A DNA stretch of 64,000 bases from a candidate division BRC1 bacterium ADurb.Bin183. GTDB taxonomy: Bacteria > Sumerlaeota > Sumerlaeia > MWCT01. The position numbers and the translations under genes were made by a program. The stretch spans positions 267,110 to 331,109 of the forward strand of contig MWCT01000001.1 of NCBI GenBank assembly GCA_002070185.1, written 5' to 3'. Under the pieces are notes generated by a model, which did no database searches, was not told the DNA's origin, and saw nothing but the letters and a program-made list of their open reading frames with translations. Shown here in pieces: positions 1 through 53,132 of this stretch (position 1 is the first letter of the stretch; the number at the start of each line of letters is the position of its first letter).

Positions 1-72
1 AAAAGGTCCGACCGTCACATCGGAATCAATCTGTGCCTCAGGTGAAATGAGCGCCGTTTGATGTTGTTTCAT
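1..72 (-). CDS. Partial CDS (N-terminal 24 codons; continues beyond the window start): hexapeptide-repeat acyltransferase, LpxA-like
   Basis: Reverse complement of 1..72 reads MKQHQTALISPEAQIDSDVTVGPF with no stop, resembling the N-terminal left-handed beta-helix start of LpxA/LpxD-type acyltransferases. Too short for a firm call. Confidence 0.3.
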   Translation of the reverse strand, partial: MKQHQTALISPEAQIDSDVTVGPF

Positions 73-299
73 AAATCGCTCCAAAAACAAAACAAATCGA
101 ATCTCGCGGTTGTGCATTCAAAAAGATGAGAAATCATAAACAAGCCCTTTCATGGCGTAAAGATTTTTTTCAAAAAATCGCTTCATTTGCAGCTATGAGA
201 TTTCCAGCTGGTCAAAAGGGCAAGCCGTAAAAAAAAGTTGACGAATGGCGGAAGCGGATAAATCTTTTCCTAATTTAATTTTTGCAAAGGTTTTATGAA

Positions 300-2219
300 A
301 TGGAAATAAAAATTACCTTTCCGGATGGAAAGGAACAATCATACCCTGCCGGCGTTACACCCCGCCAGATTGCCGAAGGCATCGGTCCAGGTCTTGCGAA
401 AGCCGCGCTGGCTGCGCAGGTGGACGGACTGAATGTGGATTTGGATGTCCCCATTAACAAGGACGCCGCTTTAAGACTGCTCACCTTCAAAGACCCCGAA
501 GGGCGCGATATTTACCGACACTCCAGCTCGCACATCATGGCGCAGGCGGTGCTGCGGCTCTATCCGAAGGCGCTTCTTGCCATCGGTCCCGCCATTGAGG
601 ACGGTTTTTATTATGACATCGAATTCCCCGAACCTATCACGCCGGAGGCGCTGCCCGCTATCGAAAAGGAGATGGAAAAGATAATCAAGGAGGATATCGT
701 ATTTAAGCGGCGCGAGCTGCCCCGCGATGAGGCAATACGATTTTTTGCAGATGCGGGCAATAAGTTCAAAGTTGAACTTATCCGCGAACTTCCCGACGAC
801 GCCGTTGTCTCCATCTATCATCAGGGCGAATTTGCCGACCTCTGCCGCGGTCCCCACATCCCCAGCACAAAACATCTCAAGGCGTTCAAACTGACCGGGC
901 TGGCGGGCGCATATTGGCGAGGCGATGAAAAACGCGAGATGCTCACGCGCATCTACGGCACATCCTTTGCCGACCCAAAGGAGCTCAAGGAGCATCTTGC
1001 CCTTATTGAAGAAGCCAAAAAACGCGATCATCGCGCGCTGGGCAAAGAACTGGACCTCTTCAGCTTTCACGGCGAAGGTCCGGGTTTTCCTTTTTTCCAT
1101 CACAATGGTCTTGTGCTTTACAACCAGCTCATCTCCTTTTGCCGCGCCGAGCTTTATAAACGCGGTTACATGGAAATCAAAACGCCCATCATCCTGAACG
1201 AGGAACTCTGGCATCGCAGCGGGCACTGGGACCACTATCGCGATAACATGTATTTCACCGATATTGATGAAAAGGCTTATGCCGTCAAACCGATGAACTG
1301 TCCGGGCGGGTTGCTGATTTATCGAAGCCGTCTCCATAGCTACCGCGAGTTTCCCATCAAAGTTGCCGAATTCGGGCAAGTGCATCGCCACGAAAAAAGC
1401 GGCGTCCTGCACGGACTTTTCCGCGTCCGCACCTTCACTCAGGATGATGCCCACGTCTTTTGCCTGCCCGAGCAGCTGGAAGATGAAATCGGCAAACTTG
1501 TGGAATTAATCCTTTATTTTTACAAAGTGTTTGGATTTGAAGATGTGCGGATTGAACTCAGCACCCGCCCCGAATCCTCCATCGGCTCCGATGAGATGTG
1601 GGACAGGGCGACCAGAGCGCTCCAGAACACGCTCGAAAAAATGAAAATTGCGCATAAAATAAATCCGGGCGATGGGGCGTTTTACGGTCCGAAGATAGAC
1701 TTCCATATCCGAGACTGTCTGAAACGCACATGGCAATGCGCCACAATACAGGTGGACTTTTCCATGCCTGAACGTTTTGACCTCACCTATGTGGGCGAGG
1801 ATGGAAAAGAGCATCGCCCTGTGATGATTCACCGCGCTATCTTCGGCTCATTGGAGCGATTTCTCGGCATCCTGATTGAGCATTACGCCGGAAATTTCCC
1901 GCTGTGGCTTGCGCCGGTTCAGGCGGCGGTTCTGCCCATTTCAGAAAAACATTTCGGTTGGGCGGAGGAGGTTCGGAAAAAATTGGAAGAGGCGGGCATC
2001 CGCGCCGCAACGAATCTCTCCGATGAAAAAATCACACGCAAGGTGCGCACGGCGGAGATGCAGAAAATCCCCGCGATGCTGATTGTGGGCGATAAAGAGA
2101 TGGAAAGCCGAAGCGCCGCCGTTCGCCGACACGGCGCCGGCGACTTGGGCGCAAAACCGCTTGAGCAGATTATCTCCGATATGTTGAAGGAAATCGCCGA
2201 AAAGCGCATCAAGCCCTGA
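300..2219 (+). CDS. thrS: Threonine--tRNA ligase (ThrRS)
   Basis: Track ORF 282..2219 begins at TTG; the in-frame ATG at 300 gives MEIKITFPDG, a typical ThrRS TGS-domain start. Class II aaRS core and C-terminal anticodon-binding region are recognisable (e.g. FYYDIEF, MNCPGG, HRA..GS.ERF). Confidence 0.9.
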   Translation: MEIKITFPDGKEQSYPAGVTPRQIAEGIGPGLAKAALAAQVDGLNVDLDVPINKDAALRLLTFKDPEGRDIYRHSSSHIMAQAVLRLYPKALLAIGPAIEDGFYYDIEFPEPITPEALPAIEKEMEKIIKEDIVFKRRELPRDEAIRFFADAGNKFKVELIRELPDDAVVSIYHQGEFADLCRGPHIPSTKHLKAFKLTGLAGAYWRGDEKREMLTRIYGTSFADPKELKEHLALIEEAKKRDHRALGKELDLFSFHGEGPGFPFFHHNGLVLYNQLISFCRAELYKRGYMEIKTPIILNEELWHRSGHWDHYRDNMYFTDIDEKAYAVKPMNCPGGLLIYRSRLHSYREFPIKVAEFGQVHRHEKSGVLHGLFRVRTFTQDDAHVFCLPEQLEDEIGKLVELILYFYKVFGFEDVRIELSTRPESSIGSDEMWDRATRALQNTLEKMKIAHKINPGDGAFYGPKIDFHIRDCLKRTWQCATIQVDFSMPERFDLTYVGEDGKEHRPVMIHRAIFGSLERFLGILIEHYAGNFPLWLAPVQAAVLPISEKHFGWAEEVRKKLEEAGIRAATNLSDEKITRKVRTAEMQKIPAMLIVGDKEMESRSAAVRRHGAGDLGAKPLEQIISDMLKEIAEKRIKP

Positions 2220-5883: not shown

Positions 5884-7284
5884 CTAAATCCCTTCCTCCC
5901 TTTGCATGTGCATAACGCCCGGGGGAATGGCTCCAGGGGGCGGCGGCGCCGCCTCGCCAAGTCCGGGCGGCGGAGGAACGGGCGCTGCCGCCACGCCGCT
6001 TTCGCTTGGTTTTTCTTCCCAGATGGTATCCAGATCCACGACCACACCCTCAACCATGCGGAGGACGTTGAGAAAGGCGTAGGCGTCCAGAACGCCTTCC
6101 CGTTCTTTTATGGTGTTGATAATCAGCGAATCGAGCTCGTAAGAACGGGAGACGTGGGAGACGTTGTAAAGGAAGTGGGTGATGTTGAAGTTTGAGCCGG
6201 TGAATCTCATTAGGATTGGAATTCCTGTGGCGATGATGTTTTGCGGAGGGGGCGCCTGCGCTCCGAGAGAAGCGGGGCGCGGTCGTCCAATCATGCCGAC
6301 TCTGCCGCCTTCGCCCATTTCGCCGTGCATCATCATCAAGTATTCGGGGTCTTCCGCCATCGCGAAAGGCATCGCTTCCGGCATAGGCGCGTTTTGTTCG
6401 CCCGGTTCAGGTGTTTCGCCGGGTTTGGGCGGTTCTTTGATAATATTCATTTCCTTCAGTTGCACTTCTGTTATGTCCTCAATCTTGTTAGTTTCCGCCA
6501 TTTGGATAATATCGTTGAGGGCGAAGAGTTGTTTATTGAGAGCCAGAAGGTCGTCATTGGGATAGGAAAGACGGAGAAATTCCTGAATCTGTTCGTCGGT
6601 GAATTTAATATCTTTAGGTTTGGCGCTGATGATGAGTTTGTAATGGCATTCGCGATTAATCAAAGGAACAAATTTGCCGTATTTATTGAGCCCCTCAATG
6701 GCGGGTTCATCAATGCCGATTTCCTCAAGGAGTTTGCTATACTGGCGCAAATTCTGGTCGCGGACGTTGGGGTTGTCCACGACCTTCAAAATGGCGCTGA
6801 TACCGCTGAGCGAACTCATAACGTCCCAAAGACGTTCGGGGCGTTTTCGGATATTTTCCGGCAGCTCGCGCGGGAGGTTCCATCCTTTTTCGCCGATAAA
6901 GCTGAGTTTTGTATTTTTTAAAGAATCCTGAAACCCGAGAAGAGTATCAATGCATTTTGTAAATTCCTCTTGGCGTTTTTTGATGGCTTCCGGGCTGGGG
7001 TCAATATAAGTTTTGGGAAGGTCTATTCTTAATTGTTCAATGACATCCTCGAATTCTTTTTTGTTCGTATCAACGCGGGCTTCGACCTTTTTTAATTCCT
7101 CAGGATTTTTTACCTTCGGGATAACCTGCTCATAGTTATCGCGGGAAGATTTCCAGTCATTCATGACAAGGGTGTATTCTGTGGCTTTGCGGGAAAAGAC
7201 CATGAAATGAAGACCGGCAAGAAAAAGAATTGTGGCAATTAAGCCAAACACCTTTTTCTCTCGATTGCGTAATACCATCTTCAT
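5884..7284 (-). CDS. Hypothetical membrane-anchored protein with Pro-rich C-terminus
   Basis: Track ORF starts at TTG 7305; the ATG at 7284 (MKMVLRN...) has an AGGAG upstream. One N-terminal hydrophobic helix, a coiled-coil-like middle and a PPPPG-rich tail. No family recognised. Confidence 0.45.
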   Translation of the reverse strand: MKMVLRNREKKVFGLIATILFLAGLHFMVFSRKATEYTLVMNDWKSSRDNYEQVIPKVKNPEELKKVEARVDTNKKEFEDVIEQLRIDLPKTYIDPSPEAIKKRQEEFTKCIDTLLGFQDSLKNTKLSFIGEKGWNLPRELPENIRKRPERLWDVMSSLSGISAILKVVDNPNVRDQNLRQYSKLLEEIGIDEPAIEGLNKYGKFVPLINRECHYKLIISAKPKDIKFTDEQIQEFLRLSYPNDDLLALNKQLFALNDIIQMAETNKIEDITEVQLKEMNIIKEPPKPGETPEPGEQNAPMPEAMPFAMAEDPEYLMMMHGEMGEGGRVGMIGRPRPASLGAQAPPPQNIIATGIPILMRFTGSNFNITHFLYNVSHVSRSYELDSLIINTIKEREGVLDAYAFLNVLRMVEGVVVDLDTIWEEKPSESGVAAAPVPPPPGLGEAAPPPPGAIPPGVMHMQREEGI

Positions 7285-7495
7285 GGGATGACATCTCCTT
7301 ATCAAAAACCGTCTTTTCTGCGGCGGTTTTCAAAAGTGCAAATATTTTGGCAAACTTCATTCACATATACCAGACGATTGTAAACGCGTTGCCTGCTCCG
7401 TTGTCAATAAAATATTGTTGGGTTCTTGGGTCACCTTGATTTTTCAAAAAAATAGATGTGTCCGTTGGAAGATGAAAAATGGGAGAAGGCGGAGG

Positions 7496-7530
7496 AATCT
7501 GGGCATGGCATGCCGCACGCGCCGACAGCG
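7496..7530. repeat. 35-nt motif, copy A of an imperfect direct repeat (31/35 identical to 11954..11988)
   Basis: aatctgggcatggcatgccgcacgcgccgacagcg versus aatccgggcatggcttgccgcatgcgccggcagcg. Both copies are intergenic and in the same orientation. Confidence 0.6.
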
Positions 7531-7617
7531 TGAATAAAAGCCCCGCCGATGTTTTGTTTGGCTCATCATCGGAGACTCTTTCTTTAAATGGTTTGTTGAT
7601 TTACTCCATGTATTTTA

Positions 7618-8886
7618 TTAATTATTTTGAGACGGTTTTGCGGAGGAAATAAGGAACAGTCTGCCGGTGCCGGCGGGTATAAATAACTGCACGCCCGGAA
7701 GTTTGGGGCTGCTGTCCCGAACGGTGATTTCCTCGCCAGATATCTTATCAATCTCACAAACTTGAGACATGTCGGATCTAAATTCCACTGTGGGCCAGGC
7801 GTTGTAAGCAATATGATAATTGTTTATCAAAACGGCTTGCCTACCGTCGGCATGTTTAAAAACGCCAACAAGATAATCCATATCAGGGTCTTCCTTGGAC
7901 TTTGATATTCGTTTTAAAGGCGTGCTGGTTAGGATGTCTTCAGAATTGCAGCCGGGAGGGATTCGATAGACGTCTGTGCTTGTGAGCTGCATGATGACGG
8001 CGCCGAGGTTTTTCAACTCTCCATTAATTCGCAATGCCTCATCATAGTGGTGAGTCTGGGTTCCATCAATAGCGATAATGGCGCCGCCTTTTGGAAATTC
8101 ATCCCCCGTGGGAGTGAAGTAACAAAAATAAAGAACGCCCTTTGCGCCATAAGCTAAAGAGGTGTATATCTGCCATCTAATTTGCGCTTCTGTGGGGTCG
8201 GTATGAGATCCGTAGGGCATAACGTTGAAAAAATTCCAAAAAGGGATGTTAAACTTAAGAGAGTATTTTCGCATTGTTTCAAGGTTGCTACAATAAAGAT
8301 CCCTGCCATCGCCATCAGGTCTGAAAATGGGGTAATGATCCATGCAAAGGACATCGGGATTCACAATTTTCATAAAATCAGATATATATTTCTCATAGGT
8401 ATTTTTTCCGAGCATACCAGAATTGGCGTAATTCGGATAGAGATTGATGAAGGATAGCTTGCCCGGATAACGTTCCCTATTTTTCTCAACCTTGCGAGCC
8501 AGATTTTTAAAATCAGCAGCAGAAGGCTCGTCTTTCAACAAATACCCCCAACAAGCAGAAGAAGAAGTTGGATAGTCTTCGGCATTTAAACCCCGCGTTC
8601 TAACAAGGGTTTTTAAATTATATTTTTCACAAAGTTCAAGTTGTTTATAGATTTCCTTAGGTGTTCTTGCTTTGACGCCAACCACCAGTGTAAAATTGGC
8701 ATCGGCAATTTCCTTATAACGCACGTCCGCTTTTTCGTCTAAGGGCGGATCTACCCAGAAACCGATTGCAAACCGATCCTGATGAAATCGGGCAATTTCC
8801 TCAGCAAGGGCGGGGTTTAAGAAATTGCAAATATACAGGAAGCATAGTGCAAATGCGATGGCTAATAAAAATAAATTTTTAGTCAA
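7618..8886 (-). CDS. Secreted glycoside hydrolase-like protein (TIM-barrel type, family uncertain)
   Basis: 422-aa ORF with an N-terminal signal peptide (MTKNLFLLAIAFALCFLY...ALA). Composition and motifs (GFWVDPP, LCMDHYP) suggest a GH-like TIM barrel. Visibly more AT-rich than flanking genes. Confidence 0.4.
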   Translation of the reverse strand: MTKNLFLLAIAFALCFLYICNFLNPALAEEIARFHQDRFAIGFWVDPPLDEKADVRYKEIADANFTLVVGVKARTPKEIYKQLELCEKYNLKTLVRTRGLNAEDYPTSSSACWGYLLKDEPSAADFKNLARKVEKNRERYPGKLSFINLYPNYANSGMLGKNTYEKYISDFMKIVNPDVLCMDHYPIFRPDGDGRDLYCSNLETMRKYSLKFNIPFWNFFNVMPYGSHTDPTEAQIRWQIYTSLAYGAKGVLYFCYFTPTGDEFPKGGAIIAIDGTQTHHYDEALRINGELKNLGAVIMQLTSTDVYRIPPGCNSEDILTSTPLKRISKSKEDPDMDYLVGVFKHADGRQAVLINNYHIAYNAWPTVEFRSDMSQVCEIDKISGEEITVRDSSPKLPGVQLFIPAGTGRLFLISSAKPSQNN

Positions 8887-9034
8887 TGGACTTCTCTTTC
8901 ATTTTAGAATTCGACTCATATATTGATCATTTCGTTTGGAAGAGTGAAAGTATGGGGAGCAGATTTAAATTTTCCTAGATTCTGCAAAATAGCGATAAAA
9001 ATAAAAACTTCCAATCGCTCTGAGAATCGCCGGG

Positions 9035-11875
9035 CTATTTCTGTTTCATAATATGAATGATATCCGCAACGTCTATGATATTGTCCTTGTTATCATCGGC
9101 GGCATTTTTTTCTTCAGGTGTGAACGGTTTTTTGCCCAGAATATGCGAAATAATTGCGGGGATTGACGGAATATATTCGTATGCTCCCATATCATAACCA
9201 GAGCCCTGAGGACGCTTTACGCCGAGAATATCATAATCCGGCGCGCCTTCGGATGTCCCCTTGTCAATACAGGGGGAATTCGGCTGAAGCCGCAAATCCC
9301 ATTTTGTTGGGTCATCGCCGGATACATTGACAAACATAGGATTATCAGAAATATTGCCCCCGCCTGATATCCCACCGCTGAAACAACTGTACTTCACCAC
9401 ACCGCCGGAAAATTTAAAGTCTTCAGTATAATTATCCCATACTATACAGTTGGTCACTGTGCCTTTGTTATAAATCCCGCCGCCGTCTATTGCTCTGTTA
9501 TTATAGACTGTGCAATTGGTCACTGCGCCTTTGTTATAAATCCCGCCGCCGCGAGTTTTTGCGTTGTTTCCATAGACTGTGCAGTTGATCACCGTGCCGG
9601 AGTCGTAGTTATAAATCCCGCCGCCGCTATATTTTGCGCTGTTTCCATATATTGTGCAGTTGGTCACCGTGCCGTAGTTAGAAATCCCTCCGCCGTCATC
9701 TGCGTTGTTATTATAGACTATGCAATTGGTCACTGTGCCTTTGTTATAAATCCCGCCGCCGCAGAAGTCTTTGGCTATGACGTGTGTGCTTGATCTATTT
9801 CCATAGATTGTGCAGTTGGTCACCGTGCCTTTTTCGTAGTTATAAATCCCGCCGCCGTAATCTGCTTTGTTTTCATAGACGGTGCAGTTGGTCACCGTGC
9901 CGGAGTCGTAGTTATAAATTCCGCCGCCGCTATATTTTGCGCTGTTTCCATAGACTGTGCAGTCGGTCACCGTGCCTTTTTCGTCGTTATAAATCCCGCC
10001 GCCGATGTCTGTTGAGGTGTTATTATAGACTGTGCAGTTGGTCATCGTGCCGGAGTTATCTATCCCGCCGCCGTTTTTGGTTGCACTGTTTTCATAGACT
10101 GTGCAGTTGGTTACCGTGCCGTAGTTATAAATCCCACCGCCATCAGATACTGCGCTGTTTCCATAGACTGTACAGTTGGTCACCGTGCCTTGCCAGCTAT
10201 CAATCCCGCCGCCAACGTCTGCGTTATTTCCATAGACTGTGCAGTTGGTTACCGTGCCGTATTTGTTACTAATCCCGCCGCCGCTGCCAAATTGGCTTAA
10301 TACTTTGTTTCCATAGATTGTGCAGTTGGTCACTGTGCCAGTATTGTAAATCCCGCCGCCGTAATTTTCAGTTTTGCCTCTTGTAATATGAAAGCCGTCC
10401 AAAAATCCTGAGTTTTGGACGCAACGGCAAGCATCCTCTCCATCTATGATTGTGGGATGCGAGGAAATGTTCCGTTGTGAAAGTTGTGATTCCGTTCCCG
10501 CAAAGCCGCCATAAAGTGTAACGCGAATAGGAATTATTAATGTCTGCCCCTCAGCGTATGTTCCTTCCGCAACCCAGATTTGATAAATATCATCAGAATC
10601 CGCAATCTTATTCAAGGCGGCATTGATGGTTTTCAAAGCCGTCTTCCACGAGAGCCCATTATTGGCGTCGTTTCCGGATTTAGAAACATAAAGAGGACCC
10701 AAAGCTCGAGGCGGTTGAGGCTCATATTCATTGGGAGATTCATAGGCTCCCATGCAGACTTTGCCATCGGCGCCCGGTCGAGGATTGCCCATAATGTCTG
10801 TCTCCGGTGCGTCCTTCGTGCTCCCCGTATCCACACAAGGAGAGCCATTTTGCAATCGAAAATCCCATGTTGATAAATCGCCTGATGTGTTGACGAAAAG
10901 GGGATTCCCCCGTATATTTCCGTCATTTCCATCAGCCTCTTCGAAACAGCTATATTTCACAGATACTCTATTCCAAATATCTCCAAGCGAGTTTTTCCAT
11001 GAGATACAGTTGGTCACCGTGCCTTTGTTATAAATCCCGCCGACGATGTCCGTTGCGCTGTTATTATAGACTGTGCAGTTGGTCACCGTGCCTTTGTTAT
11101 AAATCCCGCCGCCGCCATATTTTGCGTTGTTGCTATAGACTGTGCAGTTAGTCACTGTGCCTTTTTCGTCGTTATGAATCCCGCCACCGTAATTTGCTTT
11201 GTTTTCATAGACTGTGCAATTGGTCAGCGCGCCGGAGTCGTAGTTATAAATCCCGCCGCCGTAACTTGTTGCGCTGTTATTATAGACGGTGCAGTTGGTC
11301 ACCGTGCCGGAAGAATCGTTATAAATCCCGCCGCCGTAACTTGTTGCGCTGTTATTATAGACTGTGCAGTTGGTCACCGTGCCGGAAGAGTTATAAATCC
11401 CGCCGCCGTAACTTGTTGCGCTGTTATTATAGACTGTGCAATTGGTCACCCTGCCGTAATTGTTATAAATCCCGCCGCCTAAGCCATATATCCCTCTTGT
11501 AATATGAAAGCCGTCCAAAACTCCTGAGTTATGGACGCATTGACGGGCATCCTCTCCATCTATGATTGTAGGATGTGCGGAAATGTTCCGTTCTGAAAGT
11601 TGTGATTCCGTTCCCGCAAAGCCGCCATAGAGCGCAACATCTTCACGATTACTAACGGTTTTAGATTCTGCATAGGTCCCTTTTGCGACCCAAACCTCAT
11701 CGCCTTCTTGTGCCTTTTCTGTTGCCTTTACAATTGTTTTTAAGGCGGCATCCCATGAAACTCCCGAATTAGTATCCTTGCCGGTGGTTTTCACATAATA
11801 CCGCGCCGCAAAGGTGGAAGTTGACATAATCACCCAAAATGCAATTACCGGGAAGATGCCTCGAGTAGATTTCAT
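9035..11875 (-). CDS. Secreted right-handed parallel beta-helix repeat protein, internally duplicated, with a dockerin-like C-terminal tail
   Basis: Track ORF 9035..11905; the ATG at 11875 (MKSTRG...) has a GGAG-type RBS. Two homologous ~450-aa modules, each with many GTVTNCTVYNNSA..GGGIYN rungs. C-terminus DDNKDNIIDVADIIHI resembles one dockerin/EF-hand-like Ca-binding loop. Confidence 0.7.
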   Translation of the reverse strand: MKSTRGIFPVIAFWVIMSTSTFAARYYVKTTGKDTNSGVSWDAALKTIVKATEKAQEGDEVWVAKGTYAESKTVSNREDVALYGGFAGTESQLSERNISAHPTIIDGEDARQCVHNSGVLDGFHITRGIYGLGGGIYNNYGRVTNCTVYNNSATSYGGGIYNSSGTVTNCTVYNNSATSYGGGIYNDSSGTVTNCTVYNNSATSYGGGIYNYDSGALTNCTVYENKANYGGGIHNDEKGTVTNCTVYSNNAKYGGGGIYNKGTVTNCTVYNNSATDIVGGIYNKGTVTNCISWKNSLGDIWNRVSVKYSCFEEADGNDGNIRGNPLFVNTSGDLSTWDFRLQNGSPCVDTGSTKDAPETDIMGNPRPGADGKVCMGAYESPNEYEPQPPRALGPLYVSKSGNDANNGLSWKTALKTINAALNKIADSDDIYQIWVAEGTYAEGQTLIIPIRVTLYGGFAGTESQLSQRNISSHPTIIDGEDACRCVQNSGFLDGFHITRGKTENYGGGIYNTGTVTNCTIYGNKVLSQFGSGGGISNKYGTVTNCTVYGNNADVGGGIDSWQGTVTNCTVYGNSAVSDGGGIYNYGTVTNCTVYENSATKNGGGIDNSGTMTNCTVYNNTSTDIGGGIYNDEKGTVTDCTVYGNSAKYSGGGIYNYDSGTVTNCTVYENKADYGGGIYNYEKGTVTNCTIYGNRSSTHVIAKDFCGGGIYNKGTVTNCIVYNNNADDGGGISNYGTVTNCTIYGNSAKYSGGGIYNYDSGTVINCTVYGNNAKTRGGGIYNKGAVTNCTVYNNRAIDGGGIYNKGTVTNCIVWDNYTEDFKFSGGVVKYSCFSGGISGGGNISDNPMFVNVSGDDPTKWDLRLQPNSPCIDKGTSEGAPDYDILGVKRPQGSGYDMGAYEYIPSIPAIISHILGKKPFTPEEKNAADDNKDNIIDVADIIHIMKQK
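9400..10350 (-). repeat. Degenerate tandem coding repeats (~70-75 nt period) encoding beta-helix rungs, C-terminal module
   Basis: Recurring near-identical stretches such as tgtgcagttggtcaccgtgcc...tataaatcccgccgcc appear roughly every 70-80 nt. Confidence 0.7.
10990..11480 (-). repeat. Degenerate tandem coding repeats encoding beta-helix rungs, N-terminal module
   Basis: Same repeat family as 9400..10350; several units are near-identical at the DNA level (e.g. gctgttattatagactgtgcagttggtcaccgtgccggaag). Confidence 0.7.
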
Positions 11876-11953
11876 TTTTATCCCCTCTCCAAATGTTCGA
11901 TACATTCAAATTCTCGACAAATAGAGAAACCAATTGCAATAAATATTTAGGGA

Positions 11954-11988
11954 AATCCGGGCATGGCTTGCCGCATGCGCCGGCAGCG
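11954..11988. repeat. 35-nt motif, copy B of an imperfect direct repeat (see 7496..7530)
   Basis: 31/35 identity to copy A, same orientation, intergenic between the stop of the GT39-like gene and the start of the beta-helix gene. Confidence 0.6.
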
Positions 11989-12107
11989 CCGATTATTCTC
12001 TTTTATAAATCTCAACAATTTTGAGGAATCAGGGTAGGGCGAGAGGGCTTGGGGTTTTAAGACGCTCTGGACACGATGACTTATCTGCCGTTGGCAAAGG
12101 CAAAAGT

Positions 12108-41100: not shown

Positions 41101-44100
41101 TTATTTTTTTGCGCCGGCAAGGGAAAGAGCCATCGCTTTTATGGCGCGCAGGTCGAGTTTGCCCGTTCCTAAAATCGGCAGGGCTTCCACGCGGAAAAAG
41201 TCGCTCCATTTGGGAATCCAGAGCGGCGGCAGCCCCATATTCTGAATCTCCTCCGCTGCCCGCCGCGCTTTCTCCTCCCGTGCGGCATATAAAACAACGA
41301 GCCGTTCGCCTTTTTTTTCATCGGGAACACCGGTTACCGCAAAAATCATGTCGGTTGCGCCGATGGCGTTGTGGAGCGTCTCTTCGATCCGAATGTGCGG
41401 CGCCATCTCGCCGCCAATCTTGGAAAATCGCGAAAGCCTGTCTGTGATGGTGATGAACCCTTCTTCGTCAATCTGCGCAATATCCCCTGTAACATACCAC
41501 CCATCTTTCATAACCTCTGCGGTTTTTTCCGGCAGATGGTAATATCCGTGCATGATATTATGCCCGCGAACATGCAGCATTCCGGGTTCATTGACGCCGA
41601 GCGGCGCGCCGGTTTCCGGGTCAACAACGCGCACCGTCACGCCGGGTGCGGGATGCCCGACCGTTCCATATTTCACGCCTTTTTGATAAAAGGACGGTTG
41701 GCGGAAATCGGGTGTGTTGAGGCAGACGATGGGGGAGCATTCCGTTGCGCCGTAGCCTTCTATCGGGCGGATGCCGAATCGTTTTTCAAACGCCTCTGAG
41801 ACGTTGGCGCGCAGCTTTTCCGCGCCGGTCAGCGCCATGCGGAGCGAACCGAATTGCTCCGGCTGGACGCGCCGCGTGTATATGTTCAAAATGGTGGGCG
41901 TTGCGAAAAGATGCGTGATTTTATGTTTCTGCACAAGCTCTCCTATCTCGCGCCCATGAAGCGGGTTCGGGTGGTATATCACCCGAAACCCTGTCAGCAT
42001 CGGCAGCCAGAGCGCCACTGTGTTTCCGAACGAGTGGAAAAATGGAAGAATGCCCAGCAGGCATCCATCAGGCGGAAAATCCACCATGTGATAAGCCGAT
42101 GCGACATTTGCCCAGATGTTCCAATGCGTGAGTTCCACGCCTTTGGGCGCGCCGGTGCTGCCGCTGGAAAAAATAATCGTGGCAACATCGTCCATTGATG
42201 CGGATTTTTTTCTGCCAAGCAGTTTATCAAACGAGTTGGTTTTTTGCCGGATAAAAATATGAAAAAAGGCTTTGGATGTATCCCAGAATGAGATTTCGTT
42301 TCGAATATCTTCAAGGTAAACAATATCGCATTTTGCGGGGAGGGCGATTTTGATTTTTTTCATGAACAAACGCGATGTGATAATAAGGCGGATGCCCGCA
42401 TTGGCGCAGATTTCCTCGATAACGGCAGCGGCGGCGGTGTAGTTCAGATTGATGGGGATGCGCCCCGACCATGTTGCGGCAAGATTCGTTGCTGCCGCGC
42501 CTGCGGACGGCGGAAGCAAGATGCCGATATTTTCATCGTCCTGCCATTTGCGGCGGAGTTTCCTCCCCAGTGCAATCGTCCCCGCCAGCATCTTATACTG
42601 GGCAAACGAACCATTGCGCAGAGTGTTGACCGCTTCCAGATGCAAAGGCAGCGCGCGCTCTTTACGTATGGCAAAGGCGTCCACCATCAAATCCATAATC
42701 GCGACGCGCAATTGCGGATGTTTTGTATCGGCGGGCATCGGCTTTCCGAAGACAACGCACAAAACCGGCTTTTTTGCCCGAGGATTAAAAAAGATGGGTT
42801 TTCGGCGACCGCCCGGCAGCGCAAAGATTGTTTCATAAGCGCCGTCAATCGCCGCAGGGATAATCGGCTCTTGGATTCCCCGCATGATATGCTCAAAACC
42901 GCGGCGGAATGGCAGCATCATTCCCAACCGCGTCATCTGACCTTCTGGGAAGATGCAGACCAGCCCGCCTTGGCGGATCTCCTCGCGAGCCTCCCGCAGC
43001 GCCTTTATCAAATCCCTAACGGAGCCCAGCCCTTTTATGGGAATTGTGTTCGTTATTCGGGCAAAGGGATAGATAAACCATTTGCGGTATAGGTCTTCCG
43101 TCATAATAAAACGTACAGGGCGCTCGATGACGACGCTTAATAAGAGGGCGTCTATATAGGACTGATGATTCGATGTTATGAGCGCGCCGCCTTTGGCGGG
43201 GATATTCTCCGCGCCCTTCACGTTCACACGGTAAATCATTTTGAAAAGAACAACCGCAAGGAAACGCAAAGGGATGCGCGGGAATTTGACGCAAATGACA
43301 ATCCCTGTCAAAAGCATGAGAACCCCGCCCGCAAAAAACACATCCCCCGGAGAAGCGGTCGCCTGAACTATTAACCCCCTTGCGCCCGCCCCCGCCATCA
43401 TCCCAATGGAGGTGAACACATTAGAAACCGACCAGACGCCGCCGCGTTTATCGGGGCGAGTTTCCTGAATCACAAACGCCTGCAGAGGCACAATGAAAAA
43501 ACCGCAGACCAGACCGACAAGCCCCATCATCGCAGGGACAATGTATCGAATATGCTGCAACTGTTCCGAGCTCATGCGGCTCAATTCCGCAAAATTTGGC
43601 GTCAGCCGCCACACCAGCATCGAGGCGGAAAACATCGCCAGCGCGCCGAACGGCACAAGTCCCAACTCGATCCGATTCTTTGAAACCATCCCGGCAAGAA
43701 CGCACCCCGCCCCCATGCCCACCACAATCGGAAGCAACGCCAGCCCTGTCTGAGACGGAGATAAACCCAACACCTGCACCGCAATCAGCAACGCCGCTCC
43801 CTGCATCATCACGCCCGCCATCCACCAGACGCTCATGCCCACCACGCCCCACAAAATTCCCGTGTTGGAAAGAATTTCACGTCCATATAGGGAGACCATC
43901 GGAACGGGATTGATTTCGAATCGCTGCGCGGGATTGCCGACCGGCGTGGGCGCCATTTGAAGGGCAAGCAAAGCTCCCCCTCCCGCAAGCCCAACAAGAA
44001 TCAATCCATTAATCCAAAGCGATTGATTAAAACATTGAAAAAGCGACGGTCCAAGAATCGTACCCAAAATGATGGCAAGAAACGTCCCGCCCTGAAGGAT

Positions 44101-44574
44101 GCCATTCCCCCATGCCGTTTGCTCCTCCGGCAGAATCTCCGGCAGGATGCCGTATTTGGACGGGCTGAAAAGAGCGGATTGGAATCCCATGAAAAAGAGA
44201 ACAATAATAGCTCCGGAAATATAACCCAGCGCAAACATCGCCATCCCCGCCGCCATCACAATAATTTCCAGAATCTTTGTCCATAGGGTTACGCGGCTTT
44301 TGGCAAAACGATCGGAAAGCCAACCGGCAATGGTTGCGCTTACAATAAAAGGCAGAATAAACGCACCCTCCGCGATGGATGTCCATGTATTTCCCAGCGC
44401 GGTGGCATCTGATGGCGATTGCGGAAACCGCTCGTTGGCGTGTTTCAGAATCAGCATCATCACAATAAATTTGAAAATGTTGTCGCTCAGCGCGCCTTGA
44501 AACATCACGCCAATGAGCGCCCAGAAGGAGCGCAGGCTTCTTGGTTGAGGGAAGGGTTGTTTCGCGTCATTCAT
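41101..44574 (-). CDS. Tripartite fusion: MFS lysophospholipid transporter (LplT-like), 1-acyl-glycerol-3-phosphate acyltransferase-like (PlsC-type) domain and acyl-ACP/acyl-CoA synthetase (AMP-binding) domain; Aas-like
   Basis: Track ORF extends to 44715; probable start is ATG at 44574 (MNDAKQPF). N-terminal ~420 aa is a 12-TM MFS domain; the middle has the acyltransferase NHxxxxD motif (SNHQSYIDALL); the C-terminus has the AMP-binding signature IFSSGSTGAPKGV. Confidence 0.75.
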   Translation of the reverse strand: MNDAKQPFPQPRSLRSFWALIGVMFQGALSDNIFKFIVMMLILKHANERFPQSPSDATALGNTWTSIAEGAFILPFIVSATIAGWLSDRFAKSRVTLWTKILEIIVMAAGMAMFALGYISGAIIVLFFMGFQSALFSPSKYGILPEILPEEQTAWGNGILQGGTFLAIILGTILGPSLFQCFNQSLWINGLILVGLAGGGALLALQMAPTPVGNPAQRFEINPVPMVSLYGREILSNTGILWGVVGMSVWWMAGVMMQGAALLIAVQVLGLSPSQTGLALLPIVVGMGAGCVLAGMVSKNRIELGLVPFGALAMFSASMLVWRLTPNFAELSRMSSEQLQHIRYIVPAMMGLVGLVCGFFIVPLQAFVIQETRPDKRGGVWSVSNVFTSIGMMAGAGARGLIVQATASPGDVFFAGGVLMLLTGIVICVKFPRIPLRFLAVVLFKMIYRVNVKGAENIPAKGGALITSNHQSYIDALLLSVVIERPVRFIMTEDLYRKWFIYPFARITNTIPIKGLGSVRDLIKALREAREEIRQGGLVCIFPEGQMTRLGMMLPFRRGFEHIMRGIQEPIIPAAIDGAYETIFALPGGRRKPIFFNPRAKKPVLCVVFGKPMPADTKHPQLRVAIMDLMVDAFAIRKERALPLHLEAVNTLRNGSFAQYKMLAGTIALGRKLRRKWQDDENIGILLPPSAGAAATNLAATWSGRIPINLNYTAAAAVIEEICANAGIRLIITSRLFMKKIKIALPAKCDIVYLEDIRNEISFWDTSKAFFHIFIRQKTNSFDKLLGRKKSASMDDVATIIFSSGSTGAPKGVELTHWNIWANVASAYHMVDFPPDGCLLGILPFFHSFGNTVALWLPMLTGFRVIYHPNPLHGREIGELVQKHKITHLFATPTILNIYTRRVQPEQFGSLRMALTGAEKLRANVSEAFEKRFGIRPIEGYGATECSPIVCLNTPDFRQPSFYQKGVKYGTVGHPAPGVTVRVVDPETGAPLGVNEPGMLHVRGHNIMHGYYHLPEKTAEVMKDGWYVTGDIAQIDEEGFITITDRLSRFSKIGGEMAPHIRIEETLHNAIGATDMIFAVTGVPDEKKGERLVVLYAAREEKARRAAEEIQNMGLPPLWIPKWSDFFRVEALPILGTGKLDLRAIKAMALSLAGAKK

Positions 44575-44608
44575 TGGCGAAAAATCATGCTGAAACAAAC
44601 CTCGCGGT

Positions 44609-47110
44609 TCAAGGAAATATTTCAATCGCCGCAGTTCCCAGAATGTCGTCGCCGTTGAAGCGGAAGAAAATTTCCGATAGCCCCGTTTTTTCTGGCATGG
44701 CGAGCTCGAAATCAAAAAGGGCGCAGTCGCCCGCCCCCACGGTTCGCTCCAGCGGGATATTATGAAGAATGTTCGTCTGATTGTTCCGGCGAATTTCCAA
44801 AATCAATTTCCGCCCGCTGTCCCATGCATCCCAGCCGTCGTTGCGCACGGCAATCTGAACGCGCCTTATCTCTCCTACCTTTGCCCGCGGCGGCAAGGTA
44901 TCAAAGAGGCAGGAGGCAAACCCCTGATTTTTTCCGCCGAGGCGCAGCCGCGTCAAATAAGAGAACATCGCCGCATCGCAAATAACGTAATTAAGGTCCG
45001 GACGTTCTTCAATCAATCGGCGGTTGAGCGCCTGATAATAGGGGATGTCTTTGAGCACGCTGCGGAAAATAAGAAAGCGTGTTTCTCCCGCCTTTGCCCG
45101 CGCGTGAATTTTTACGGCATCCTTCGCCGTATTGCCGGAAAGGTCTTCGCACATCACATAGACCGGCATATTCTCAACAAGATGAAGCGGGGCATATTCA
45201 AATTCCATCTGCTGCACAACGCCCCCGCGTGAAAAGGGGAGGAACATCCGAACCGAATTTGGCGTGATAGTTCCCGCCCTTCCATTAATCAGAAATCCCG
45301 TAAAGTTGTAACCGAATTTTTGATAATAATATCGGCAATGCGATTGCCAAAGAGCGTCCGCGGCGGGCGCGCCGGAGGGCTCCCTTGGCGGCAGCAGCTG
45401 CGTGACATTCACATACCCCGCGCCGGAGTCGCCGGAAATAAAAACGTCCTGCGCTGTGCGTGTGCGATAGGCATATTCAAAAAACTGCCGCGCACGCTCG
45501 GAAAGATTGGGATTGACCGCCCAAGACATTTTCAGACTGCCGCGTTCGGGGGCGTCCCATCGGCTAAAGAGCGAGTTGACCGTCCACGCCGCCGCATCGT
45601 AATCGCCCACATAATGCAATAGATATGTTTTTGCCGCAGGGGCGCCCTTTTCATCAAGGAGACCTTGCCTCCGCAGCTCCTCCTCCATAGGCGGCAGCGG
45701 CTGCGCGTATCGGCTCGGCAGCGGCAGATGCTGGAAGACGGAGGCATTTGCCAGCGCCGAAAGATGCAGCGCATCGGCGTCAATATAGGCATTATAGGCG
45801 GAAAGAATCCGCACCGTTTCCCACTCCGTCTCCACGCCGCCGCGGCGTCCGCCCGCGCCTTTGGAGTCCGTGTATTTGAATGCCCAAGGCGTGAACCCGC
45901 CCACATGAATAAACGCGCGGTGATTGCTCAGACGGAGCGATTCGGCGAGGATTTCTTGCAGGATTTTGAAATCCGACCCAAGAGGTTGGCAGGGATCATC
46001 AATCGGCGTTTCATCCGCCCAGACGGATAAATCCCAGAAGAAGCCTTTATGCGAAATAAAATAATCATGATTCGTCAGCGTGTGATTTTGAAAATCGTGC
46101 CCCGGCGCCGGATTTTTTATCCAGAAAGAGTCAATATAATAGCCCTGATAAAGCGGATTGCACAAACCCGTTTTGAGATATTTTTCCATCGCCCAAATGT
46201 AGGCGTCGCACTTTTTCGACCCGGTGGAAGTGCGGTTTGTGTCCGGAATCATGCTCCTGCCTGTAAATTTGTTGCAAAGGTCGAGCCGCACGGGCAGGTT
46301 TATTTTGCCGGAAATTAACCGCTGATAGAGCGAATCGGGCGAAGGGTTTTTGGGAATGGGCAAGAGATTTTCCGCGCCCGCCGCTGTGGAGGCAACGTTG
46401 GACGTGGCGGGAACATCCGGATCCCAAAGAACAACGCCGTTTATTTCATCGGCAAAAATTTTCACAAGCGACTCAATATCGCCAACCGGTTTCAATGTTA
46501 TTTTTTCCAGCCAGCAGCCGGGCTCCCGCATGCGGCGCAGCCAGTATTCATCCACATTTTCTTTTGCAAGCTCGCTCTGAACAAAATAAACATAAAGGCG
46601 CGGATGGCGCCGGTTCGCGATTCCTTGCAACGCCGCCGCGAGATGCGCGTGTTCAAAAGCCCGCCACGCAGGCAGGGCGCGCGTGTAGCGCAAATCGTAT
46701 GTGTATAAAACACCGGCGGCTTGTTCGATGGGATGAATCCGAAACGGCGCGCGCCGCGCGCTCCACCCGCTCCAGCCCGCTGCAGAGCGCGCCCTTGCCC
46801 ACGTAAAAAGAGTTGTATGCTCGGGAAATTTTTGAGAGGATGTGAAAAAGAATTTTTCGCTTTGCATCTCGCCGGAGTCCCAGATAATTTCCGATTCCGG
46901 ACTCTCGCCGGATGTGATGCGGAGATGAAAAGCCTCGTGCGACTCGCCGCGCCATTCGATGCGCGGGGGATTGGCTGTCGAGATTCCCGCTGGCAACGCC
47001 ACAATGGGAGGCAGCGGTGGCTGAGCAGCGCAAATGGAATTTTCTGCCATAAAAAATCCTTTTCCAAAAAGTATGAGTAGAATTAGTATATACATATCCG
47101 CGCCTGTCAA
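44609..47110 (-). CDS. Hypothetical secreted protein (833 aa), possibly glycoside-hydrolase-like
   Basis: Long ORF with an N-terminal hydrophobic signal-like segment (MYILILLILFGKGFF). No confident family; the YVGDYDAAAW / GDSGAGYVN segments weakly recall GxGYxYP-type putative glycosidases. Confidence 0.4.
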   Translation of the reverse strand: MTGADMYILILLILFGKGFFMAENSICAAQPPLPPIVALPAGISTANPPRIEWRGESHEAFHLRITSGESPESEIIWDSGEMQSEKFFFTSSQKFPEHTTLFTWARARSAAGWSGWSARRAPFRIHPIEQAAGVLYTYDLRYTRALPAWRAFEHAHLAAALQGIANRRHPRLYVYFVQSELAKENVDEYWLRRMREPGCWLEKITLKPVGDIESLVKIFADEINGVVLWDPDVPATSNVASTAAGAENLLPIPKNPSPDSLYQRLISGKINLPVRLDLCNKFTGRSMIPDTNRTSTGSKKCDAYIWAMEKYLKTGLCNPLYQGYYIDSFWIKNPAPGHDFQNHTLTNHDYFISHKGFFWDLSVWADETPIDDPCQPLGSDFKILQEILAESLRLSNHRAFIHVGGFTPWAFKYTDSKGAGGRRGGVETEWETVRILSAYNAYIDADALHLSALANASVFQHLPLPSRYAQPLPPMEEELRRQGLLDEKGAPAAKTYLLHYVGDYDAAAWTVNSLFSRWDAPERGSLKMSWAVNPNLSERARQFFEYAYRTRTAQDVFISGDSGAGYVNVTQLLPPREPSGAPAADALWQSHCRYYYQKFGYNFTGFLINGRAGTITPNSVRMFLPFSRGGVVQQMEFEYAPLHLVENMPVYVMCEDLSGNTAKDAVKIHARAKAGETRFLIFRSVLKDIPYYQALNRRLIEERPDLNYVICDAAMFSYLTRLRLGGKNQGFASCLFDTLPPRAKVGEIRRVQIAVRNDGWDAWDSGRKLILEIRRNNQTNILHNIPLERTVGAGDCALFDFELAMPEKTGLSEIFFRFNGDDILGTAAIEIFP

Positions 47111-53113: not shown

Positions 53114-53132
53114 ACGAATTCGAGGGGAGCTT

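Follow-up and report, generated by a model that had tools for sequence, protein, structure and literature searches.

Among the genes in the analyzed window (the whole 64,000-nt stretch of DNA under study), one on the minus strand carries arrays of repeats that resemble each other at the DNA level. It raises two connected questions, namely what its product does and whether its repeats vary in number so as to switch or remodel a surface structure, as the initial annotation had considered. The overall reading that we regard as probable is a two-module secreted beta-helix protein that recombines in whole rungs and has a non-catalytic surface or adhesive role.

Gene, modules and fold

The list of open reading frames (ORFs) gave a minus-strand frame of 956 aa (9035..11905). 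The true start is likely the ATG at 11875, which is preceded ~7 nt upstream by GGAGAGGGG and yields a 946-aa product; the features of this shorter form are collected in Table 1. The product is identical to NCBI OQB23051.1 from ADurb.Bin183 (candidate division BRC1/Sumerlaeota), and its relatives carry the name Candidatus Sumerlaeota. The source is an uncultured Candidatus Sumerlaeota (BRC1) bacterium, and the protein, already deposited, is an ordinary beta-helix repeat protein. Elsewhere in the window, tblastn found no further copies of the gene. Its neighbors are glycan-related and encode a SASA esterase, a polysaccharide deacetylase, a PMT_2 glycosyltransferase and a GxGYxYP hydrolase. At the N terminus, a basic n-region, a 17-aa hydrophobic core and a TFA|A cleavage motif can be read from the sequence, a layout that suggests a Sec-type signal peptide and hence a secreted protein; AlphaFold2 places a helix at residues 7-19 of this region at low pLDDT, and the peptide is kept in all paralogs.

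Table 1. Features of the repeat-bearing gene and its surroundings, in window coordinates
Feature	Position	Strand	Description
Upstream region, presumed promoter and 5' UTR	11876..12050	-	Kept among all paralogs; two units of a 9-nt tandem, TCGGCGCTG
Complete CDS	9035..11875	-	946 aa plus stop codon (9035-9037); putatively secreted two-module right-handed beta-helix with two choice-of-anchor Q domains
Signal peptide (predicted)	11804..11875	-	MKSTRGIFPVIAFWVIMSTSTFA(A); without lipobox cysteine
Module 1 N-cap	11495..11803	-	RYYVKTTGKD...LDGFHITR; 65% amino acid identity with module 2 N-cap
Module 1 rung array	11012..11494	-	Six rungs, each 23-25 aa, and a partial one; NCTVYxNxAxxGGGIYNxxGTVT
Module 1 last rung and C-cap	10730..11011	-	First choice-of-anchor Q domain (NF041518); 51% amino acid identity with module 2 C-cap
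Pro-rich inter-module linker	10694..10729	-	EYEPQPPRALGP
Module 2 N-cap	10379..10693	-	LYVSKSGNDANNGLSW...LDGFHITR
Module 2 rung array	9452..10378	-	Twelve rungs, each 22-30 aa, and a partial one
138-nt segment, two rungs (R8 and R9)	10124..10261	-	Lies between 31-nt exact direct repeats; lost in frame from one metagenome contig
Module 2 last rung and C-cap	9167..9451	-	Second choice-of-anchor Q domain; best NF041518 stretch at residues 868-911
C-terminal tail	9038..9166	-	One dockerin-like calcium-loop-and-helix, DDNKDNIIDVADIIHIM; kept in all paralogs
Opposite-strand Cys/Arg/Ser-rich ORF	9784..10272	+	162 aa, wholly within the minus-strand CDS
Opposite-strand Cys/Arg/Ser-rich ORF	11174..11482	+	Wholly within the minus-strand CDS
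Opposite-strand Cys/Arg/Ser-rich ORF	11194..11502	+	Wholly within the minus-strand CDS

Sequence profiles, structure prediction and structural searches gave the same fold. Beta_helix (PF13229, 86.2 bits versus a cut-off of 25.9) and Chlam_PMP repeat (PF02415, 65.6 bits versus 20.6) were the only families listed in a Pfam scan at E<=0.01. With NCBIfam, choice-of-anchor Q (NF041518) reached 91.9 bits (cut-off 25) over two stretches, each module having one, and para_beta_helix (TIGR03804) 43.9 bits versus 19.45. The AlphaFold2 model (pLDDT 92.4, pTM 0.83) has short strands at the rung period and capped ends, with residues 541-559, inside the 138-nt segment, as its sole low-confidence stretch. All top Foldseek matches were right-handed beta-helices, comprising Pel9A, Rhombotarget A, PL6 lyases, Ag43 and TibA. 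As modeled, a right-handed beta-helix with ~22-25 residues per turn is confirmed. PDB sequence searches matched only designed or natural leucine-rich-repeat proteins (E 9e-6 to 0.4); with the Pfam profiles, AlphaFold2 and Foldseek all pointing to a beta-helix, a leucine-rich-repeat solenoid was rejected, and these matches were put down to a repeat period and composition in common.

The architecture consists of two tandem right-handed parallel beta-helix modules with a short Pro-rich linker between them. Each module has a DUF1565/Pel9A-type N-cap, stacked minimal rungs of 22-25 aa that are nearly free of loop insertions, and a choice-of-anchor Q C-cap. The beta-helix protein of two duplicated modules that had been read from the DNA is, therefore, upheld, the homology of the modules being evident from the identities of their caps; at the DNA level, the 3' 146 nt of the module 1 N-cap are 90% identical to the module 2 copy. 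The halves had been put at ~450 aa each, but they are unequal in size, with ~358 aa (~7 rungs) in module 1 and ~509 aa (~13 rungs) in module 2. Multi-module design is common in the family, which has >5,000 relatives at E<=1e-10: among the best 120 matches, 36 contain 2-4 copies of the C-cap motif. The tail of 43 aa, modeled by AlphaFold2 as three helices, matches Dockerin_1 (PF00404) at 17.9 bits (E=0.0037), short of the 22.9 cut-off. The match spans only positions 17-53 of the 57 in the profile, corresponding to one loop-helix, so that by this Pfam profile the tail has neither the two calcium-binding loop-helix repeats nor the score of a type I dockerin.

Structural or catalytic role

For such a protein, we propose a non-catalytic role as a surface or extracellular structural or adhesive protein, a proposal for and against which the scales are about level. 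The tail would tether the protein to the cell surface or to a partner protein by a dockerin-like contact that depends on calcium, and the regular faces would bear the outward-facing Thr and Tyr of the rung motif; strand alternation suggests that these residues form ladders pointing outward.

The strongest competitor, which we consider unlikely, is that the secreted protein acts on an extracellular glycan as a polysaccharide lyase or glycoside hydrolase (Pel9A/PL9-like or PL6-like), each module being a catalytic domain. Structural similarity points in this direction: the best single-domain Foldseek match is Pel9A (1ru4; TM-score over target (TMt) 0.57, probability 1.0), two-domain PL6 alginate lyases come top by E-value, and genuine enzymes (PL9, PL6, GH55 and lacto-N-biosidase) are among the matches. 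The glycan-active genes in the neighborhood would also fit, but the paralogs of the gene sit in unrelated genomic contexts. PF22842 (Pel9A-like_beta_helix) is precomputed for a form of the 946-aa protein from another assembly with two substitutions, but was not listed in our Pfam scan (E<=0.01). The positions that hardly vary in the family are G/N/C/W/F/P and cap residues, and the number of conserved acidic or basic rung positions across 55 homologs is zero. The rungs are minimal and regular, without the long loops that would build a cleft, and PDB searches with the single sequence and with the family profile returned no lyase and no significant sequence relation to solved lyases. No characterized homolog was found by sequence. 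We disfavor an enzyme role because of the missing charged conserved positions, the scarcity of loop insertions and the lack of a sequence relation to solved enzymes. The pectate-lyase-like fold anticipated in the initial annotation, thus, holds at the level of the fold and does not extend to sequence kinship with solved lyases.

Rung repeats, paralogs and rung number

Tandem Repeats Finder reported arrays of period 66-75 nt with scores of 308-546, and a repeat search of the gene gave a repeat family of 71 nt with 18 copies. The rungs had been described as near-identical in DNA. Repeats are indeed present, but near-identity is confined to a few pairs, the most alike being R1/R2 (95%), R12/R16 (93%), R5/R17 (90%) and R4/R13 (89%), and pairwise identity averages 77% (range 63-95%); the longest exact repeat among rungs is 51 nt. 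Rung DNA is more similar than protein conservation requires, because identical rung-core residues use the same codon in 81-88% of pairs, where the codon usage of the gene itself would predict 44-46%. On the opposite strand, the Cys/Arg/Ser-rich ORFs previously dismissed as artifacts do exist (Table 1), and plus-strand ORFs of a similar kind occur inside the rung arrays of the paralogs; their placement is consistent with artifacts, and they are probably non-coding.

The gene is part of a family that counts at least four paralogs, one of them pseudogenized, with a common upstream region. Nucleotide identity of rungs is 0.71-0.76 between paralogs versus 0.71-0.77 within genes, and in every comparison between modules a 141-nt block of the N-cap shows 84-94% identity, with slightly higher values within a gene. 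Paralog B holds a patch identical to the 946-aa gene, and all four combinations of the patch and a rung indel occur. Duplication of rungs and modules, with later recombination or gene conversion both inside paralogs and from one to another, would account for this pattern because position-specific codons are shared and rung DNA is about equally alike within and between at least four paralogs. Gene conversion is suggested by these patterns, and a recent duplication burst with slow divergence would look alike. The upstream region showed no strain variation among the assemblies compared. As candidates for its role, a structured RNA or riboswitch was rejected (no Rfam match, fold z-score -0.61, unfavorable covariation term), as was a phase-variation tract formed by the 9-nt tandem, the copy number of which is fixed per paralog in every assembly seen. 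Two genome-collection scans returned no match to the upstream element, while a metagenome scan returned seven loci, all from the same paralogs.

The rung count was constant in nearly all independent assemblies examined, although short-read assemblies may conceal or create variation in repeat number. Across five independent assemblies, the 3.2-kb gene region differed by ~6 SNPs. The full-length form was called as 946 aa on 16 contigs and, for the same allele, as 956 aa on 11 (the counts may overlap), and the 946-aa sequence was recovered from NCBI, JGI and ENA contigs. Length variants were drawn from a 90% cluster, and several proved not to be variants of the gene: the pairs 956 and 946 aa and, for paralog B, 735 and 687 aa are start-codon calls, the 529- and 879-aa calls of paralog A have identical DNA, and a 916-aa form (P0130 / L008) is a chimera at the end of a contig, its C terminus being paralog-like. 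Rung number did differ in two cases, one in this gene and one in a paralog. The first is the loss of the 138-nt segment (L006 / P0132), which falls exactly between the two 31-nt repeat copies and is known from a single 17-kb MEGAHIT contig, where assembly collapse is possible. The second concerns paralog B, in which one 72-nt rung next to a 19-nt exact repeat on either side is present in some alleles and missing from others, each allele occurring in several assemblies. The suggestion that the array is prone to expansion and contraction is weakly favored by these alleles and opposed by the near-constant count. Recombination between exact repeats of 19-31 nt would occasionally remove or add whole rungs in frame. 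All rung units are multiples of 3 nt (66-90 nt), and in-register recombination would therefore alter length and not frame or expression, with rare length alleles as the outcome and no on/off switching.

We consider it highly improbable that the gene is a contingency locus, in which repeats would often expand and contract and thereby switch a surface antigen or make it more diverse by phase or size variation. The alikeness of the tandem units with their long exact repeats, the two-rung deletion allele, the one-rung dimorphism of a paralog in many assemblies and the multigene family with a pseudogenized member would agree with such a locus. Against it stand the unit lengths, which leave no frameshift-based switch, the stable rung count and the invariant upstream tandem. 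The disruptions observed are also point events outside the repeats: in one assembly, G>T at window position 10723 converts GAA to TAA in the linker and splits the gene there, and one paralog carries a +1 A frameshift. No homopolymer or short contingency repeat varied between strains in the assemblies compared, and no repeat change altering frame or promoter was found among close strains; the phase-variable surface structure raised at the outset is not supported. That assembly of the metagenome-assembled genome (MAG) collapsed repeats or made them chimeric, so that the repeat structure or its length is an artifact, has a negligible chance of being true, since the contig-end chimera and the single short contig with the deletion would fit but the same sequence recurs on many contigs from NCBI, JGI and ENA, the ORF is intact and the model is confident throughout save 19 residues.

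A secreted beta-helix protein with occasional whole-rung recombination is, thus, our preferred reading of the locus. The data indicate that a repeat-rich gene in a MAG can be assembled consistently, document the loss of whole rungs between short exact repeats and caution that repeat likeness at the DNA level does not by itself imply phase variation.

Comparison with known systems

Chlamydial polymorphic membrane proteins (Pmp proteins), which are autotransporter adhesins with GGA(I,L,V)/FxxN coils, share several features with the 946-aa protein, including a PF02415 score above cut-off and a multigene family with pseudogenes; the MAG annotation was originally 'pmp20'. In the 946-aa protein, the GGGI motif occurs once per beta-helix coil, a spacing that has been described for Pmp proteins (PMC11166332), in which the repeat motifs mediate adhesion (PMC2997323). 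PF02415 is not specific to Chlamydia, which accounts for less than a third of matches (PMC11166332). Unlike in Pmp proteins, the host is not chlamydial and the modules end in choice-of-anchor Q caps, and the Pfam scan at E<=0.01 detected neither an autotransporter beta-barrel nor a Pmp middle domain. It seems distinctly improbable that the at least four paralogs, which share a leader and appear to swap rungs and patches, act together as a Pmp-like system through which an exposed protein varies in length and surface. If they did, Pmp-like diversification would extend to an uncultured phylum of free-living bacteria, the flat Thr/Tyr ladders would provide a binding face, for instance for crystalline polysaccharide or other cells, and rung number would tune reach or avidity.

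Pel9A (PL9, 1ru4) and DUF1565 proteins have an N-cap motif of the same type, and relatives of the 946-aa protein carry PF07602 or PF22842. In the cleft of Pel9A lie a cluster of calcium-binding Asp residues and the catalytic Lys. The 946-aa protein differs from it in sequence (15% identity in the structural alignment) and in its rungs, which do not bear the loops that typically decorate a lyase cleft. Rhombotarget A from Acinetobacter (9cdv/9cdu) is similar in structure (TMt 0.53-0.57) and, like the 946-aa protein, is a secreted beta-helix protein without an assigned function. It differs in having a single module and 14-15% identity, and in its C-terminal sorting tag, which we take to be GlyGly-CTERM and distinct from the C-terminal signal of the 946-aa protein.

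The closest known system is that of the choice-of-anchor Q or right-handed parallel beta-helix repeat proteins (NF041518, TIGR03804 and PF13229), for which all three cut-offs are passed and after which NCBI names the same protein from other assemblies. The name 'choice-of-anchor Q' was not found in the literature searched; an anaerobic-digester paper there concerns choice-of-anchor F. A biochemical function for any member would be useful, although this copy offers no special entry point and has little import beyond annotation. N-cap, rungs and C-cap are the same, tandem multi-module forms are common, and the C-terminal anchors of relatives vary, comprising dockerin, PKD and T9SS tails. Nothing essential sets the 946-aa protein apart from these relatives; its own traits are the very regular rungs of 22-25 aa and a tail that is only half dockerin-like.

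Architecture, fold and family of the beta-helix protein

A single minus-strand ORF (9035..11905, 956 aa) carries the whole two-module protein. An ATG at 11875, ~7 nt 3' of GGAGAGGGG, gives a 946-aa product, the form delimited in the initial annotation. Read from this Met, the protein is identical to the database entry OQB23051.1 (P0122), which has as its source 'candidate division BRC1 bacterium ADurb.Bin183' and is annotated there as 'putative outer membrane protein pmp20 precursor'; for other assemblies, NCBI lists it under 'choice-of-anchor Q domain-containing protein [Candidatus Sumerlaeota bacterium]'. Databases already contain this exact protein as a named entry.

The encoded protein has a signal peptide and two beta-helix modules. 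Both cap types are homologous from one module to the other (N-caps 65% identical, C-caps 51%). The two halves had been described as homologous and ~450 aa each; the homology holds, but the modules differ in size (about 358 versus 509 aa). Their rungs follow the consensus NCTVYxNxAxxGGGIYNxxGTVT. The tail aligned with the second half of the Dockerin_1 profile (17.9 bits, below the 22.9 cut-off), and its loop DDNKDNIIDVAD fits, as judged by eye, the dockerin calcium-loop pattern.

Parts of the protein (residues in 956-aa ORF numbering) and copies of the conserved upstream region (nucleotides)
Feature	Position	Strand	Remarks
Signal peptide	11-34		
Module 1 N-cap	35-137		
Module 1 rungs	ending at 298		one partial and six of 23-25 aa
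Module 1 last rung and C-cap	299-392		
Inter-module linker	393-404		Pro-rich
Module 2 N-cap	405-509		
Module 2 rungs	ending at 818		one partial and twelve of 22-30 aa
Module 2 C-cap	819-913		
C-terminal tail	after module 2 C-cap		43 aa
Conserved upstream region	window 11876-12050	minus	~170 nt, common to all paralogues
Other copies of this region	L003 5290-5439 and 7990-8147; L005 7530-7678; L015 7414-7570		contigs from other assemblies

The proposed beta-helix fold was borne out by profiles, modeling and structural comparison. Curated cut-offs were passed for Beta_helix (86.2 versus 25.9 bits), Chlam_PMP (65.6 versus 20.6) and para_beta_helix (43.9 versus 19.45), and choice_anch_Q scored 91.9 bits over two stretches (cut-off 25). 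The AlphaFold2 model, computed from a 55-sequence alignment, reached a pLDDT of 92.4 and a pTM of 0.83, with short strands repeating at the rung period and three helices in the C-terminal tail. Its sole low-confidence stretch (pLDDT below 50) is rung R8 (window 10208-10264; residues 541-559 in 946-aa and 551-569 in 956-aa numbering). Foldseek against the PDB returned right-handed beta-helices exclusively. The best single-domain matches had TM-scores over the target (TMt) of 0.57 (Pel9A, 1ru4) and 0.53-0.57 (Rhombotarget A, 9cdv/9cdu); PL6 alginate lyases with two domains were also among the hits, as were the adhesins Ag43 and TibA. The suggested pectate-lyase-like fold is, thus, supported by the fold matches but not by PDB sequence searches, which, with the single protein and with a family profile, yielded nothing meaningful; they returned only a weak N-cap match and matches to LRR proteins that reflected periodicity.

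All tested features of the choice-of-anchor Q/right-handed beta-helix repeat family were present, and the protein is an ordinary member of that family, real as the initial observation is. Tandem modules are habitual there, with two to four C-cap motifs in 36 of the top 120 homologues. The C-cap domain (choice-of-anchor Q) was not mentioned in the literature searched.

The gene lies in a stretch of lower G+C (window 6000-12000; 43-47% versus 50-55% in the remaining window), together with a secreted 422-aa protein (7618-8886) that had no family match and a Pro-rich 473-aa protein (5884-7305); amino-acid composition and foreign origin are candidate causes. Elsewhere in the window, a 3256-aa plus-strand ORF (53061-62831) with nine PKD as well as NHL/Vgb_lyase-like, F5/8 type C and FlgD-Ig domains looks like a giant surface protein. 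A minus-strand 1204-aa fusion (41101-44715) joins MFS transporter, acyltransferase and AMP-binding domains, resembling fusions of lysophospholipid transporters with acyltransferase/acyl-ACP synthetases.

Rung repeats and their stability

Tandem Repeats Finder identified arrays with a period of 66-75 nt (scores 308-546), and a repeat search found a 71-nt unit in 18 copies. Rung-versus-rung DNA identity averaged 77% (range 63-95%), with a longest exact repeat of 51 nt; the rungs are, hence, similar as initially reported, while near-identity applies to a few pairs only. GTVTNCTVY is almost always encoded as GGC-ACG-GTG-ACC-AAC-TGC-ACA-GTC-TAT, where three different Thr codons are each fixed to their own position, indicating position-specific codon choice. 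In the rung core, identical-residue pairs used the same codon in 81-88% of cases, where the codon usage of the gene itself predicts 44-46%. Given this identity and codon excess, the DNA likeness is real and exceeds protein constraint. Cys/Arg/Ser-rich opposite-strand ORFs occur as described, on the plus strand and wholly within the CDS; similar ones lie within the rung arrays of the paralogues.

The 90% cluster of the protein comprised 18 sequences. The full-length form recurred widely: 16 contigs carried the 946-aa call, and 11 had this allele called at 956 aa, counts that may overlap. Across a 3.2-kb region, five independent assemblies differed by about 6 SNPs. One 17-kb ENA contig (L006) showed an in-frame loss of 138 nt (window 10124..10261), equivalent to two rungs, with the junction exactly within a 31-nt exact repeat whose copies lie 138 nt apart; this could be real recombination or assembly collapse. 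The low-confidence rung R8 falls within the missing segment, and its low pLDDT may be an alignment-depth effect or mark a truly dispensable rung. In another assembly, G>T at window 10723 converts GAA to TAA in the inter-module linker, cleanly splitting the gene into a 384-aa module 1 product and a 555-aa module 2 product without signal peptide. A 916-aa variant was rejected as a length allele, being a contig-end chimera. Overall, the rung count of this gene is nearly invariant, and the postulated proneness to expansion and contraction is weakly supported. Phase variation, also raised initially, is not supported: each unit has a length divisible by 3, the short tracts do not vary, and the disruptions seen are point mutations.

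Paralogues and their shared leader

Members of the multigene family to which the gene belongs share a leader, and its species has at least three further genes built in this way. Of these, paralogues A and B are adjacent in tandem (contigs L002-L004 and L012). Rungs are lost in frame between short exact repeats: paralogue B (L003 8145-10208 versus the second match in L012) occurs in two allelic forms that differ by the presence of a single 72-nt rung, which a 19-nt exact repeat flanks; each form was found in several assemblies from different pipelines. Remaining length differences in its cluster were start-codon calls. Paralogue B is also polymorphic in a four-residue patch, TSAFKTIEKAT or GAALKTIVKAT. 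As the latter is the sequence of the window gene and all four combinations of patch and indel occur, the alleles suggest recombination or conversion between paralogues. Between metagenomes, paralogue A shows dozens of clustered substitutions in its 5' end and upstream region (L002 5100-5640 versus L003 and L004), with the remainder of the gene identical; such a mosaic allele fits a recombination tract. Paralogue C, a three-module gene (L005 7676-11207, L015 3881-7544; also L011 and L014), looks like a decaying pseudogene, with four independent assemblies sharing a +1 A frameshift at LDGF|HITRG, a second break ahead of module 3 and, in L015 (one assembly), ATG>ATA at the start codon.

Rung DNA identity was about the same between paralogues (0.71-0.76) and within genes (0.71-0.77). 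A 141-nt N-cap block was 84-94% identical in all modules compared, slightly more within a gene. The rungs may, in our model, undergo concerted evolution through unequal recombination and gene conversion. Neighborhoods of the paralogues are unrelated to each other; therefore, the paralogues appear to be stand-alone units.

The upstream region contains the invariant blocks TGCGGCAAGCCATGCCC and TTTGTCGAGAATTTGAATGTATCG and a 9-nt tandem, TCGGCGCTG, with two units ahead of the window gene and paralogue C and four ahead of A and B. Unit number is fixed per paralogue, and the region lacks strain variation. It gave no Rfam match, fold signal or covariation and presumably represents promoter plus 5' UTR.

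Putative function and relation to known systems

The Foldseek matches and glycan-related neighbor genes would suit a PL9- or PL6-like enzyme. We consider this unlikely, since the protein has no sequence link to enzymes, its rungs are minimal and the positions conserved in the family alignment (G/N/C plus caps) are structural. From the same features, we infer a non-catalytic surface or adhesive role, in which the C-terminal tail might mediate calcium-dependent docking.

Adhesion is mediated by Pmp motifs (PMC2997323), and PF02415 is known as non-specific (PMC11166332). The Pfam scan of the window protein listed no autotransporter barrel. Without the defining autotransporter features, the protein is not a Pmp, although it shares with chlamydial Pmps the coil motif and membership in a multigene family.
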